Source: Escherichia phage CMSTMSU. From it: 64,000 nt of DNA. The notes beneath the pieces were generated by a model. The model searched no databases and had not been told where the DNA came from. It saw only the letters and a program-made list of their open reading frames with translations. The stretch is taken from the sequence record MH494197.1, one strand, 5' to 3'. This document shows positions 7,708 through 40,165 of this stretch, one piece after another (positions within the stretch are counted from its first letter, which is position 1; every line of letters starts with the position of its first letter). Made by a program: the position numbers and the translations under genes.

Positions 7708-7843
7708 AGTTATTTCCTCATGTATTTTATTACATCTTCAAATAGTTTAGTTTTCAGTGCATCATCATTACGTAGAAAAGTACTGAAGCTATTAAAATCT
7801 TCATTCTTGGCAAACTCACGCATCTGTGTGGAACTGTAGCGAC

Positions 7844-8238
7844 TTACATTTCGGTCAATTCCAGCTTGAACTGCCTTGATTGAACAAAAATTATATAACT
7901 TCCCATTGTACGTGTCAAGCGTTTTTGGAATGGTTCAAGTCTGTCTGAACCACATATGAAAAGAACATCTAAGTACTTTCCATCCAGTTCTCTCATTATA
8001 TCAAACAGATTATCTTCTGTATAGATATTTTCTTGTACAGATGGGTAAAATCCTTCTGTATAGTACATTTTCAGTTCAGGAGGTAATGGGTTTTGATGGC
8101 ATCAGTACTGGTACTAAGGAATATTTTCAAATCAGCATTGTACTGTTCTTGTAGTGCTTGAGCTTTTTCAAACACTAAACCATGACCTCGATGTACAGGG
8201 TTAATTCTTCCGAATGTCACTACGCATGTTTCTTTCAT
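7844..8238 (-). CDS. cytidylyltransferase-like nucleotidyltransferase (possible NMN adenylyltransferase), split into two frames
   Basis: N-terminal piece 8071..8238 reads MKETCVVTFGRINPVHRGHGLVFEKA (G-x-F-x-P-x-H-x-G-H signature), then a stop and continuation in ORF 7844..8068. Confidence 0.5.
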
Positions 8239-8311
8239 ATGTTCTTCATCACCTGACCAATAGATTTAAGATGGTTGATTTTAGCTGGAGTCAAATACTT
8301 ATCCAGTACTA

Positions 8312-8760
8312 TTAAACAACTAGGGAATGGAGCACTGTCAGTCTTTTATCTGGTTCTTCAGGGATACCGAACTTTAAGCGACCTTTTATAAAACAAATAC
8401 AATCACAAACTTTCGCAGCATAATCCTGAAAGGCTATAGTATCAGTTCTTGATGGTACGAGAATCAGTACTGTAGCACCTTTGTTATATGCATCAACTGC
8501 CTTAGATAACCACGTTTTCAAATCACTGTACGGTGGGTTGAGCCACACGATATTGTTTCCCAGTCCTGTTCAAGTGAATTGTCTTCTGGTGTAAAGAACT
8601 TATCACACAATGCAGTTTCTTTGACACACGCTGCATCTAGTGTAAATTCCCAGAGTTCATCCAAATCTTCAAAGAAATCCTTTGGAGTAGTCCAGTTATC
8701 TTTTCCAGTACTGAAATGTACTGATTGTTTTTCTTCGAAGCATCCTTCTTCGACATACAT
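8312..8760 (-). CDS. Dam-like DNA N6-adenine methyltransferase (PF05869-like), frame-shifted
   Basis: WTTP, FTLDAAC, NPPYS, PSRTDT and KGRLKF motifs across overlapping ORFs 8518..8760 and 8312..8548; shift lies just before NPPY. Confidence 0.7.
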
Positions 8761-34876: not shown

Positions 34877-35080
34877 TTATATATTCAACCCTTTAACAAT
34901 GGAAATAAATTCTTTGTATACATTTTCAGGTAAAGCTTTACTACCATAAAGAATACTAAATTCAGGTAACATATCCGAAATCTCTTTCGCTAAATTTATT
35001 TCATCCCTGAACATTTGCACAGGCATGATATCCTGTACCAATGATAACTGAAAGAAAAATGATTCAATATCTTCATGCAC
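34877..35080 (-). CDS. family A paralog
   Basis: core ESFFFQLSLVQD. Confidence 0.45.
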   Translation of the reverse strand: MHEDIESFFFQLSLVQDIMPVQMFRDEINLAKEISDMLPEFSILYGSKALPENVYKEFISIVKGLNI

Positions 35081-35236
35081 CTCTGAATTTAAATAAATCT
35101 CTTCTGGAAACTGGGCTGTACTGTAATAATAAAATACATCAATTCTTTTTCATTATTTTGTACAAGAGGTAAATTTCTTTCGTCTCTCTTATTAATATTT
35201 GTTTTCCATGACTCAATGTTATTCGGAATCCAAAAC

Positions 35237-35482
35237 TCATAAGGTGTCTTCTCCTGAAATATTATCCAGCTTCAATCCATAATATTCACCTTCTCCGTAC
35301 TTTTGCTTCAAAACAATACCTGTACTACTAATGTTTACAATGTACGTATCAACAATCCCTTCTGTGCTAAAAGGAATATTTAACTCTGAACCTTCAGGGT
35401 ACTTAGCATTGAATGCATCTAATGCTTTACTTAGCACTGGGATTGCACTGGTACTGTACTTCATTAATTGGTCTATGATCAT
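35237..35482 (-). CDS. hypothetical protein
   Basis: track ORF 81 aa. Confidence 0.4.
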   Translation of the reverse strand: MIIDQLMKYSTSAIPVLSKALDAFNAKYPEGSELNIPFSTEGIVDTYIVNISSTGIVLKQKYGEGEYYGLKLDNISGEDTL

Positions 35483-35853
35483 TTTAATTCTGTAATCACT
35501 GCATTTACTGCACTTGATGCAAATAAACTGATATTTGAACGATACATATCGTACACTGTACTTTCTTTCTTGTGCACAATGAAATCATAAAGATCAACGA
35601 ATGCAGGAATAATAATCTTGAATGATTTATTTGGGTACGTCCCAAAATCAACTGTACTCAATTTTGCAACGAGCATAACAACAAAGATTTCTTCTGGACT
35701 ATGCAATGTACTGTACTGAAAATATTCCTCAGCACTCATGGCACTTATTGCATTTATATCTTGTGTTTGTAATGTAATATTAAGATATTCAAAAATAGAA
35801 TAAAACTCTGATTTTGTTTGTATTTTGTATTTGTCAATTGGGGTATCTCTCAT
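35479..35853 (-). CDS. family A paralog
   Basis: core SAEEYFQYSTLH. Confidence 0.45.
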   Translation of the reverse strand: MRDTPIDKYKIQTKSEFYSIFEYLNITLQTQDINAISAMSAEEYFQYSTLHSPEEIFVVMLVAKLSTVDFGTYPNKSFKIIIPAFVDLYDFIVHKKESTVYDMYRSNISLFASSAVNAVITELK

Positions 35854-36104
35854 GAACCATAAACGATCTTGTCCATAAAAGGAATGATTGAATTTGGGGA
35901 AGCCAGAAATACTTCTTCACTATCAATATCCTTTAACTCAATTTGCATACCGGATGAATTGGCAATAATTAATTCATTAAAAATATAATGAACCTTGTGT
36001 ACAATCTCTTGTACTGAATTGAAATCATCTGGTATTTTAAAATTTTCCATAGGTATCTCCTTAAAATGATTACACATTGTACCATGCATTTGTACTCGTG
36101 TCAA
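35850..36104 (-). CDS. hypothetical protein
   Basis: track ORF 84 aa; degenerate SEEVFLASPNS. Confidence 0.35.
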   Translation of the reverse strand: MTRVQMHGTMCNHFKEIPMENFKIPDDFNSVQEIVHKVHYIFNELIIANSSGMQIELKDIDSEEVFLASPNSIIPFMDKIVYGS

Positions 36105-36120
36105 ACAAAAAGCCCATATC

Positions 36121-36618
36121 TTACGATACAGGCATGTTTATTTGAATTTCATTGTACAAATCATCAATATATAGACATGAAAACGATAAACTTTCTTTAA
36201 CTATATTGTTGTGATAAAGCATTTTAAATGCAATATAGAAAAATAAATCAATATCATCATGTACTAAATTCTGCTGGAACCACCACTCTTCTGTTAAATC
36301 TTGTGCATTAAAATCATCAGGAACTACAATTGACGACATATCAGCATCTTCTTTGTACTCAAACCACATGTCGTCATTTGGATAACGTTCATGCTTCTCT
36401 GGGTAACAATTGCTGGGATTAAATGCTAAAATATAAAATGCCGTCGCAGAATGTTCTTTATTATAAAATGAATTATTCCACACCTGATACCTTTCACCAA
36501 CATCAAACTCTTTTGATACTGATGTTATTGCACATAATGTACGATATATTGTTTCTATTTTGTGAACAAATTTAAAGGCTGCATCTAAACTGAACTCTAA
36601 ATCAGACATGCGGTGCAT
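36121..36618 (-). CDS. family A paralog
   Basis: core TEEWWFQQNLVHD. Confidence 0.45.
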   Translation of the reverse strand: MHRMSDLEFSLDAAFKFVHKIETIYRTLCAITSVSKEFDVGERYQVWNNSFYNKEHSATAFYILAFNPSNCYPEKHERYPNDDMWFEYKEDADMSSIVVPDDFNAQDLTEEWWFQQNLVHDDIDLFFYIAFKMLYHNNIVKESLSFSCLYIDDLYNEIQINMPVS

Positions 36619-36938
36619 AAAATTACCTCAACTAAAATAAGAACGGTATTGAATTCGAGGCAACCTTTGATACCTTGATTGTACATGTACTTTGCTACTA
36701 CATATTTCTGTACTAAATTATAATTATTAAATTCCTCAAAATTGTAATTTAGAATGAAATTTGTACTCAAAAATAACTTATGCATCTCTAATGCACTCTG
36801 ATAATATTTGTACAACTCACTGATATCAATACTTTGTAAATCACTTTGTTCATATGTATGATAAGGAATGGCGTCAATATCAATATTATTAAACCATTCT
36901 CTTAACTTATTAATATCAAATGTATTATTCAGCTTCAT
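36597..36938 (-). CDS. hypothetical protein
   Basis: track ORF 113 aa. Confidence 0.4.
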   Translation of the reverse strand: MKLNNTFDINKLREWFNNIDIDAIPYHTYEQSDLQSIDISELYKYYQSALEMHKLFLSTNFILNYNFEEFNNYNLVQKYVVAKYMYNQGIKGCLEFNTVLILVEVILCTACLI

Positions 36939-37042
36939 AACTCAATACCTCCATTAAGCACTCATAAACACCATCAATCGCATAAGCACAAAACTGAAAT
37001 TAATTTTGTTATTCTTGTGTAATGGACTATCGTGTACTGTAC

Positions 37043-37500
37043 TCAACATAACACTATAAAACAAAGAACGTTCATGTGTAAATAATGATTCCTGAAAAAT
37101 GCTTCCTCTGATTTAATTTTATTATATTCAATCGATTGATCATTAGAATAAAATGAATCTTGATTTGAATTGTACCATGTGTAATCCAAATCATTCTTTG
37201 ATATAACTGGTGTTGGATTAAACTGTAAAAGACTAATAACACTACGGGCATTTGGGGTATCAGGTGTATTGAATCGTTTATCAAAATGACTCGTGCACGC
37301 AATATGTGAATCAAAATCAGATGGTTTAAACCCCATGAATGCGTTAATGATTCTTGTATATGGTTTTTATTATGTGCTGCTTTCTGTACATTATATAAGG
37401 CTGCAACAATACAAGCTAACTTTTGTCCCATAAGGATTGCATTAGCGTAGGTGTACTGAATTTCATTGTACTCATTGCTTTCATTGTACTTCGAGATCAT
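37043..37500 (-). CDS. hypothetical protein, frame-shifted; degenerate family A motif
   Basis: two overlapping minus-strand ORFs 37043..37336 and 37072..37500; SEEAFF... Confidence 0.3.
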
Positions 37501-37690
37501 GGAACAGCCTCACTTTGCCTAACTCGTCATTGGATATTAATTCGTTAACAGCTTTTTGTATATTCTTTAATAATAGCACATCAAATCCTTTTGTGTCAAG
37601 CACACATTGCATTTGGAAGAATTCTTCTTCTGATAATGTATTAAAATCCACAAAATTGTCTAATATTACGTCATTATCCAAATGTGCCAT
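37481..37690 (-). CDS. family A paralog
   Basis: core SEEEFFQMQCVLD; near-identical to 37818..38129. Confidence 0.45.
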   Translation of the reverse strand: MAHLDNDVILDNFVDFNTLSEEEFFQMQCVLDTKGFDVLLLKNIQKAVNELISNDELGKVRLFHDLEVQ

Positions 37691-37817
37691 GTGCCATGTA
37701 TTTCTTTCGAGCGTTTAATAAAATTCCATCCATCTGGATAATCGGGTTCTAATTCTACATATATCCCCGATACTGTATAAAGCATTTTATATATCATAAC
37801 TATTGTACTCATTGTTT

Positions 37818-38129
37818 TCACTGTACGTCGATGTCATAATACGCTCCTACCTCATAATCTTTCTTGCTTTGGAATTCATTAACGACTTTCTGTATATTTC
37901 TTAATGTTACCATGTCATGTCCGTACATGTCAACCACCAATTGCATTTGGAAAAATTCTTCTTCAGATAATGTATTAAAATCTATAAAATAATCCGTAAC
38001 AACCTGTGCGTCTAAATTTGCCATGTACCATTGATTGGTATCGACCTCTTTAACCAAATTCCATGCATCTGGATCGGATTCTAATTCTACATATATTAAT
38101 GTTAATGTATAAAGCATTTTATACTTCAT
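37818..38129 (-). CDS. family A paralog
   Basis: core SEEEFFQMQLVVD. Confidence 0.45.
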   Translation of the reverse strand: MKYKMLYTLTLIYVELESDPDAWNLVKEVDTNQWYMANLDAQVVTDYFIDFNTLSEEEFFQMQLVVDMYGHDMVTLRNIQKVVNEFQSKKDYEVGAYYDIDVQ

Positions 38130-38463
38130 AACTATATCCTTGCATTAATAAATCATAAACGTTTGAAAGGTGCGGAATTTTGATATAAAATTTAAAACCC
38201 TTAATTAAAGGATTCGCGTACAATGAACTGAATAACTTTAGATAATGTATTTGACGAGGACTGTATAATAACGATTTCTGAAATAATTCAGCACTACAAT
38301 CTGAACTAATATCAATTAAATCAATTCGTGCTTCTACTTCATCATCTTGTTTCAAAACATAAAAGAAATAATCGTTTGTGTTGACCCACAAATACCCTTC
38401 ACTATTTTCGTATATAACAGGAGATGCTTGTTCTGGATTGCCTTGGCAAATGCTGCAAAACAA
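38119..38463 (-). CDS. family A paralog
   Basis: core SAELFQKSLLYS; C-terminus LLMQGYSYEV shared with 38700..39014. Confidence 0.45.
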   Translation of the reverse strand: MFCSICQGNPEQASPVIYENSEGYLWVNTNDYFFYVLKQDDEVEARIDLIDISSDCSAELFQKSLLYSPRQIHYLKLFSSLYANPLIKGFKFYIKIPHLSNVYDLLMQGYSYEV

Positions 38464-38699
38464 ACTTTTGCATTACTTTCATCTTTAAACATAAACGATA
38501 ATTTATCATATCTATCTTCTATGCGTAAATCACCTATAAAATGTACTTATGCATAGAATGATTATTCTTGAGCATAAGCATTACTGTACTAATCTTGTGT
38601 GCTAATAATTCTATCTCATTCATATATTATTACCTATTGATTGATACATCGTCATTGTCTTCTAATTCAACATAAATCATATCTTTTGTATAAAGCATT

Positions 38700-39014
38700 T
38701 TATACTTCATAACTATATCCTTGCATTAAAAGATCATAAGCAATATCAACTAATTCTAAACGAATGAAAAATTTTAAATTATCTTTCAATGGATTCAAAT
38801 GCATTGTACTAAACAACATAAGATACTTCATTTGATTTGTATTGTATATTAGGGATGTCTGGAATACTTCTGCTTCATTGTAAGGATCAATGAATTTTAT
38901 ACCTTCTTCACTGTAATCCGTTTTGGAATTCTGATATATAAAATAATCATCACCAGCATTGTACCACAAATAACCTTCAAAACTGGAATCAAATTCTGAA
39001 TTTTCATTTCGCAT
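38700..39014 (-). CDS. family A paralog
   Basis: core AEVFQTSLIYN. Confidence 0.45.
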   Translation of the reverse strand: MRNENSEFDSSFEGYLWYNAGDDYFIYQNSKTDYSEEGIKFIDPYNEAEVFQTSLIYNTNQMKYLMLFSTMHLNPLKDNLKFFIRLELVDIAYDLLMQGYSYEV

Positions 39015-39259
39015 TAAAGGTGATACTGAAATTGGATTTGAACCAACTGTTGCACAAACCTCAATGAAAGCATCTTCATTTCCTTAACTTCTTCTTTGAT
39101 TTTATCATTGTACTGACCTGCAAAACCAGCTTTCACTTCCAAATATAAACTACTCCCAACTTTATTAATTCTTAAAAGGGAACTCTGTACTGTATTCGCA
39201 TTGTTCAGCACTAACGATATTGTGCAAATCTTATGTACCAATAACTCAATATCATTCAT
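39014..39259 (-). CDS. hypothetical protein
   Basis: track ORF 81 aa. Confidence 0.35.
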   Translation of the reverse strand: MNDIELLVHKICTISLVLNNANTVQSSLLRINKVGSSLYLEVKAGFAGQYNDKIKEEVKEMKMLSLRFVQQLVQIQFQYHL

Positions 39260-39964
39260 ATTGGTATTCCTTAATTTGGTGGATTTGGATGTAATAACTG
39301 ATCTATATAATTTAAATGTTCTATTGTAACTAATGAAAGATAATAATTGTAATTATCTATACCACCCTTTAAATGTATATTGTAATACATCTTGATACTT
39401 ACTAATAAAGAATCATTTAAATCATTTATTGCTTTTGTATTAACGGTTTTCATTAATGTTCTTCTCTTAAAAACGCTTAATGGCACAATCTAAATAAAAA
39501 TCATAATACATCATATCTCTATTCTTAACCCATACACAATAATCTGCATTAATATTTCTTAATAATATATTCATATTATAATCTTCACACCCTAATCGTG
39601 CCATTTAATAGGATACTCCGTTCCATTTATTGTATAAGATATAATCCATCCGTAATGAATAGGATGATTTTTGTCTGAATCAGGAATAAAATATAAAGAT
39701 GTACTGGGTTATAACTGAATAAATCGTTGTTACCAATTGTAAAATGTGATAACTCAATCTTCCTTGTACCTGTACTTGGACGAAGAACATTCTTAACACC
39801 GAAGACTGTACCTTGATATTTCTCGGAAAATTCAAACAATGCATCTGCAATTAAATCACGAAACTCCGCATGTATGGTTTCAAAAAATCTATATTACACG
39901 ATGTTTTAATATCCTTGAACTCCTTATATAAAGAGCTTCTTGTATTCAAAAGAAATATTACTTT

Positions 39965-40165
39965 TTAAGATCCTGAACTATTTCTGGATTCATATTCATT
40001 TATCTCATTCTGTAACTTAAGCATCAAAATTTGCATATTAATTTTTTGTACAAGGTGATTGAGAAATTTCTGTACTGTATCTTCTTGTTCTTTTGACCCA
40101 AGATAAAATAACATATTAAATTCCGATAACCTCAGAGCAAAATCTTCCTCTCCCCTCGTAAACAA
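39965..40165 (-). CDS. family B paralog
   Basis: core YLGSKEQEDTVQKFL. Confidence 0.4.
   Translation of the reverse strand: MFTRGEEDFALRLSEFNMLFYLGSKEQEDTVQKFLNHLVQKINMQILMLKLQNEINEYESRNSSGS

Follow-up and report, generated by a model that had tools for sequence, protein, structure and literature searches.

Phage T1 Dam methylates GATC, and the Dam enzyme of Stx lambdoid phages (VT2/933W type) is reported to be GATC-specific as well. T1 Dam (AAP49979.1) is the founding member of the family PF05869 (TIGR01712, "phage N-6-adenine-methyltransferase"), which also includes the Stx-phage enzyme. Among jumbo phages, orthologs of the gene considered here are XOD30563.1 in EC.P1, QAY00631.1 in Ecwhy_1, gp417 (AIT14307.1) in 121Q, gp148 (YP_009150462.1) in PBECO4, gp447 (named "dam") in RaK2, and CDS0623 (DMFGBAAK_CDS0623) in Hallingskeid. 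RaK2 gp447 is listed as one of two methyltransferases, and the authors concluded from unpublished restriction digests that RaK2 DNA is modified (PMC3622015). CDS0623 is likewise one of two methyltransferases predicted in the Erwinia jumbo phage Hallingskeid (PMC11780129). The stretch of 64,000 nucleotides analyzed here (the window, to which all positions refer unless stated otherwise) belongs to Escherichia phage CMSTMSU (sequence record MH494197.1), and the orthologs share with it the position, strand and neighbors of the gene: a hypothetical gene lies upstream, and a cytidyltransferase gene follows downstream with an ATGA overlap. The methylase is a known, ordinary and routinely annotated phage gene.

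In the deposited CMSTMSU sequence the reading frame of this gene is broken. A preliminary description placed an apparently disrupted Dam-like N6-adenine methyltransferase at 8312–8760, but neither boundary holds, since frameshifts have produced both the apparent start at 8760 and the apparent stop at 8312, and the gene in fact extends from 8756 down to 8235. This extent is based on global alignment to the EC.P1 coding sequence, on the annotated orthologs, and on matches in Pfam, NCBIfam and PHROG. The AdoMet-binding and catalytic segments are assigned by translation, conservation and alignment with T1 Dam, and the downstream gene by its ATGA overlap with the methylase, in a gene pair that recurs across RaK2-like jumbo phages. 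The features of the locus are:

8235..8756, minus strand: gene for the Dam-family (PF05869) N6-adenine DNA methyltransferase
8728..8732: frame break 1, T5 (coding strand A5, codons K8–K10) where EC.P1 and Ecwhy_1 have six bases; makes the false start at 8760
8626..8646, minus strand: FTLDAAC codons, an AdoMet-binding motif I-like segment
8559..8561: frame break 2, C3 (coding strand G3, W66–G67, just upstream of NPPY) where relatives have four bases
8528..8539, minus strand: NPPY codons, catalytic motif IV of N6-adenine methyltransferases
8344..8347: frame break 3, T4 (coding strand A4, K137–K138) where relatives have five bases; makes the false stop at 8312
7710..8238, minus strand: downstream cytidyltransferase/nucleotidyltransferase gene

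All five motifs named in the preliminary description (WTTP, FTLDAAC, NPPYS, SRTDT and KGRLKF) are present on the minus strand, distributed over two overlapping open reading frames. The translated ORF at 8518..8760 (80 aa) contains WTTP and FTLDAAC, and that at 8312..8548 (78 aa) contains NPPYS, SRTDT and KGRLKF. Each of the two ORFs separately matches Pfam PF05869 (Dam), with E=1.9e-12 (47.6 bits) and E=5.5e-11 (42.9 bits), respectively, which is far beyond chance. The two halves cover adjoining parts of the profile, positions 7–59 and 63–130, and when joined they match it with E=4.7e-29. The LDxAA AdoMet-binding segment lies N-terminal to motif IV, (D/N)PP(Y/F/W), as PF05869 requires. When the frame is repaired, the protein scores 112.5 bits against PF05869 (gathering cutoff 28.1; E=2.3e-32), covering profile positions 7–153 of 169, and matches phrog_111 "DNA methyltransferase" at 9e-57; together with the alignment of its motifs to those of T1 Dam, this bears out the earlier assignment to the small phage Dam family. 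Against the NCBIfam equivalog TIGR01712 (phage_N6A_met), the repaired protein reaches 92.6 bits and narrowly misses the cutoff of 97.05, so that identical function and target with respect to the seed members are not guaranteed.

Among 83 homologs, Asp41 of FTLDAAC and Asn74 and Pro76 of NPPY are invariant, and Pro75 and Tyr77 are conserved in at least 90%. A sequence search of the PDB returned no methylase relative of solved structure. An AlphaFold2 model of the repaired methylase, calculated with the 83 homologs, has a pLDDT of 87.6 and a pTM of 0.82, and its predicted fold is that of a Rossmann-type class I methyltransferase. The top Foldseek matches of the model in the PDB (PCIF1/CAPAM, RlmJ and KsgA) are all N6-adenine methyltransferases.

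As for the frame itself, the preliminary description noted a break just before NPPY. That break is real and falls in the C3 run at 8559–8561, between ...QDW and G-NNIVWLNPPY, but the gene contains three breaks rather than one. In the window the gene measures 522 nt, compared with 525 nt (174 aa) in relatives, and it shares positions 8235–8238, at its 3′ end, with the next gene. The true N-terminus reads MSKKDASKKKQSVHF..., whereas the false start at 8760 gives MYVEEGCFEE..., and the last 36 residues are hidden by frame break 3. Three ORF products of the window, among them the frameshifted 80-aa fragment (AXC38863.1), are identical residue for residue to the CMSTMSU proteins AXC38860.1, AXC38863.1 and AXC38864.1, and a single 386,442-bp contig is the only one on which each of these is seen. 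When each of the three runs is lengthened by one base, global alignment of the resulting 525-nt gene to that of EC.P1 shows 0 nucleotide differences and an identical 174-aa protein; compared with EC.P1-type orthologs, the deposited sequence differs only in the three homopolymer lengths, with 0 substitutions relative to the intact EC.P1 allele in 522 aligned nt. A scan of IMG/VR with an exact 30-mer around the central break, carrying either C3 or C4, gave no match to either allele.

The 1.5-kb stretch around the methylase matches 35 records of Asteriusvirus jumbo coliphages, the best being EC.P1 (99.1%) and Ecwhy_1 (98.7%), and 1500 bases of the window align to 1508 bases in 8/8 close relatives. 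The records of the close relatives contain an intact 525-nt CDS annotated as DNA methyltransferase, followed by the cytidyltransferase with the same 4-base overlap. By tblastn, 30 Asteriusvirus records and about 18 other RaK2-like phages have the methylase at full length and in one uninterrupted frame, and in these phages the full-length gene is always adjoined by the nucleotidyltransferase gene. The exact intact 174-aa protein is present on 30 public contigs, and homologs of the methylase occur in 2198 phage records. The repaired protein is 100% identical to its counterparts in EC.P1 and WPEC5, 91–92% to those in 121Q and PBECO4, 64% to that in RaK2 and 67.8% to that in Hallingskeid. Relative to PBECO4 and 121Q, dN/dS is about 0.05 with dS of about 1.0–1.4, a ratio indicating that the methylase is under strong purifying selection.

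A different kind of split is seen in another Asteriusvirus record, that of Salmonella phage SD-15_S21 (OR699188.1; 1501–1982 of the stretch examined), where a 40-bp internal deletion takes out the motif-I segment (ELWEFTLDAACVKE) of an ortholog that otherwise has 2 mismatches to PBECO4. The same ortholog is apparently split in SD-2_S15. The SD-15_S21 genome has further deletions of 35–267 bp nearby and is about 22 kb shorter than those of relatives, and the split in its ortholog reflects either genuine loss or faulty assembly.

The breaks in the methylase are part of a pattern that extends over the entire window, which we measured by comparison with 63 kb of Ecwhy_1. In the 4.5 kb surrounding the gene, alignment to EC.P1 and to Ecwhy_1 reveals 28 indels, all of them deletions in the window, most located in homopolymers and several inside CCAGG. 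The downstream cytidyltransferase gene is broken as well: homopolymers near 7922 and 8091 have each lost 1 nt, and a CCAGG site near 7772 has lost 3 nt. Over the window as a whole, 390 deletion versus 39 insertion events are counted relative to Ecwhy_1, and 303 versus 21 when only single-base events are counted. Shortening depends strongly on run length: A/T runs of four, five, six and seven bases are shortened in 0.8%, 33%, 80% and 95% of cases, respectively, and G/C runs of three, four and five bases in 8%, 49% and 83%. As a result of the comparison, 0 G/C runs of at least five bases are counted in the window versus 16 in the relative, and 20 A/T runs of at least six bases versus 103. From these rates, 4.5 shortened runs are predicted in the methylase, and 3 are seen; one C4 run within the gene is called at the correct length.

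Homopolymers and CCAGG/CCTGG were also singled out by an unbiased k-mer scan of the deletions. Of the 55 CCWGG (Dcm) sites of the Ecwhy_1 stretch, 43 are hit by a deletion in the window and 19 by mismatches, and a deletion is found at 1/137 GATC sites. The window itself contains 0 CCWGG sites, against 31.5 +/- 5.9 in shuffled sequence and 55 in the homologous Ecwhy_1 stretch. Homopolymer length and Dcm motifs represent the two dominant classes of consensus error of the ONT basecallers of 2017–2019 (PMC6591954). The CMSTMSU draft (MH494197) was assembled with Canu from MinION FLO-MIN106 (R9.4) reads called with Albacore 2.1.3, and the announcement describes no polishing step and no short reads (PMC6256653). 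Deletion bias, dependence on run length, errors at Dcm sites and a documented nanopore-only assembly, the features by which nanopore consensus errors are recognized, are thus found together. Among reference ORFs, 123/162 with a length of 60 aa or more carry a frame-shifting indel in the window, as do 67/81 (83%) with a length of 100 aa or more. The announcement gives 767–938 predicted genes (PMC6256653), compared with about 550–620 in relatives, an excess that gene fragmentation would produce. The error signature at Dcm sites implies that the sequenced virion DNA carried 5mC at CCWGG and was therefore Dcm-methylated, with ordinary cytosines accessible to the host Dcm.

From these observations, the methylase gene of CMSTMSU is almost certainly intact and functional, and its apparent disruption is caused by uncorrected nanopore errors of the draft assembly. 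The word "disrupted" in the preliminary description is true of the deposited letters, but in all likelihood untrue of the phage, since homopolymers are under-called throughout the window. The Asteriusvirus and RaK2-like jumbo phages all carry an ordinary methylase gene of the T1 Dam type (PF05869). The basecaller systematically shortens homopolymers and miscalls Dcm-methylated CCWGG sites, and on this reading A6, G4 and A5 of the coding strand were each called one base short, splitting the 174-aa ORF into fragments.

A genuine pseudogene in CMSTMSU, inactivated by real frameshifts and dispensable, for example, because the host provides Dam, would agree with the frameshifts present in the deposited sequence, and loss of the gene may be tolerated, given the SD-15_S21 ortholog that lacks motif I. 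Such a pseudogene is nevertheless highly improbable. The gene has three independent indels without a single substitution, which is not what a decaying gene would look like, and the breaks fall exactly in run classes that the assembly shortens at rates of 33–80%. By the same reasoning, 76–83% of the ORFs in the window would also need to be pseudogenes, in an assembly that is nanopore-only and for which no polishing is described. Furthermore, dN/dS is about 0.05 across the genus. Neither a disruption specific to this gene nor a relaxed constraint, as expected for a pseudogene, is observed.

Two regulatory readings of the split were also considered, and both are rejected. If the gene were expressed by programmed ribosomal frameshifting, or by slippage during transcription of the homopolymers, the split would be a regulatory feature, and the breaks do lie in short A and G runs; at the central break, the sequence GGGAAAC resembles a slippery heptamer of the X XXY YYZ type. 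The heptamer is out of phase, however, since the upstream frame reads TGG GAA ACA and not G GGA AAC, and a gene of 522 nt would have to undergo three separate −1 events, in runs of 3–5 bases that are too short for efficient slippage. In addition, about 48 relatives all encode the methylase in one frame, and most genes of the window would need the same "signal", which leaves this reading with next to no probability. Bacterial phase-variable methyltransferases with simple-repeat tracts exist, and homopolymer tracts could in the same manner switch the enzyme on and off in the phage population. Here, the tracts of 4–6 bases are much shorter than those in which slippage is frequent enough to be useful, their lengths are identical in eight independently isolated close relatives, and the shortening is genome-wide and unidirectional, making phase variation equally far-fetched. 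The reading as an intact gene with basecalling errors accounts for the split in its place.

With respect to function, the methylase probably acts, by analogy with its family, as an orphan N6-adenine DNA methyltransferase that depends on AdoMet and marks phage DNA during replication. The 174-aa enzyme would use S-adenosyl-methionine and the NPPY motif to methylate the N6 position of adenine, and the methylation, most probably at GATC, would be placed on the rapidly replicating phage DNA, where it would shield the DNA from restriction enzymes specific for unmethylated sites. The probable target is suggested by the family members and by the methylomes of relatives. In Hallingskeid virion DNA, the modified motifs are GATC (6mA) and CCWGG (5mC), as determined by nanopore sequencing of native versus WGA DNA (PMC11780129, Table 3). 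According to the authors, host enzymes could account for this methylation (PMC11780129), and in the relatives GATC methylation could come from host Dam just as well as from the phage enzyme. Our literature search on T1 Dam specificity and PF05869 found no usable source on target specificity within the Dam family. The errors in the CMSTMSU assembly give no signal at either GTAC (6/591) or GATC (1/137), the error profile being uninformative for 6mA.

The preliminary description raised the question of whether the target is related to a GTAC-centered palindrome that is enriched in the window. The enrichment itself is pronounced: AGTACT occurs 240 times, versus about 21 expected from base composition (11x), and GTAC 600 times versus 199 expected. 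AGTACT is not confined to one codon phase but occurs in all three, and also between genes, and therefore represents a DNA-level signal. The ratio of observed to expected AGTACT is 5.7x in EC.P1 (100–150 kb, the replication/structural region), 8.0x in RaK2 (255–305 kb) and 13.5x in Hallingskeid, so the enrichment is clade-wide, covering three lineages and three host genera. In the compared Ecwhy_1 stretch, AGTACT is absent from one 5-kb bin (35000–40000 in the coordinates of that stretch). A link between the methylase and this palindrome is unsupported, because Hallingskeid, which has an ortholog and about 12 GTAC sites per kb, has no GTAC-containing motif in its methylome, where only GATC and CCWGG are modified.

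The narrowly missed TIGR01712 cutoff does, strictly speaking, leave some room for an (A)GTAC(T) target as judged from the protein sequence, but it is very unlikely that the enzyme of the RaK2 clade acts instead, or also, on the adenine of (A)GTAC(T). If it did, this activity would tie the enzyme to the clade-wide skew in word usage (AGTACT 6–14x, GCGC absent). For a skew of AGTACT or GCGC in jumbo phages, a search of the literature found no report.

Other short words also deviate from expectation. GCGC occurs 0 times in the window, against 41.3 +/- 5.9 in shuffled sequence, and the count is likewise 0 in the stretches examined of Ecwhy_1 (65.7 kb), EC.P1 (50 kb), RaK2 (50 kb) and Hallingskeid (24.5 kb), where 21–56 would be expected. 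Since other assemblies show it too, the absence of GCGC is not a sequencing artefact; RaK2 was sequenced by Illumina HiSeq with primer walking (PMC3622015). The absence suggests that there may be strong selection against a GCGC-specific nuclease, either of the host or encoded by a phage. GGCC and CTAG are also depleted, and among the enriched palindromes of the window TGCA (1.85x) and ATGCAT (2.2x) come next. In a relative, Erwinia phage Kaldavass, modification of unidentified type has been reported at TGCAT (PMC11780129).

The split in the methylase gene is a data-quality artefact that carries little biological weight. Its main consequence is one of caution: no seeming frameshift, short ORF, truncated homopolymer or lack of a CCWGG site in the window should be taken at face value, and findings from it that build on ORFs or on the absence of a motif need to be checked against EC.P1 (PQ657772) or Ecwhy_1 (MH791411). 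Arguments from the absence of CCWGG are invalid for the window, because the sites have been destroyed by sequencing errors.

Among solved structures, the closest fold to that predicted for the methylase is the Rossmann-fold N6-adenine methyltransferase core of PCIF1/CAPAM (PDB codes 6irw and 6irv; E=6.8e-6, query TM 0.66). PCIF1/CAPAM is a eukaryotic enzyme that acts on mRNA caps; the core resides within a protein of about 490 aa and is 12–15% identical to the methylase, and the likeness is a structural analogy only. E. coli Dam (PDB codes 2ore and 4rtn) shares the AdoMet-dependent N6-adenine chemistry and the D/NPPY motif, and its GATC target is probably the same. Unlike the phage methylase, it belongs to the alpha-class family PF02086 and recognizes DNA through a distinct domain; its fold matches the predicted one weakly (Foldseek E=0.017, TM 0.27–0.33), and there is no sequence match.

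The Dam enzymes of Stx lambdoid phages are, like the jumbo-phage methylase, PF05869 members; they are of similar length and can be aligned with it over residues 19–173 (E about 6e-13). They differ in having about 30% identity, and are carried by temperate lambdoid phages rather than by a lytic jumbo myovirus. T1 Dam is 32% identical to the methylase over residues 19–121, and differs by its length of 237 aa, with about 40 additional residues at the N-terminus and an insertion before GRL-F. In both enzymes, a separate large target-recognition domain is absent, and the motifs appear in the same order, W-TP, LDAA, WLNPPY, P-x-x-(T/S)T and GRL-F. The FTLDAAC and WLNPPYS segments of the methylase align with YDLDAAA and WLNPPYS of T1 Dam.
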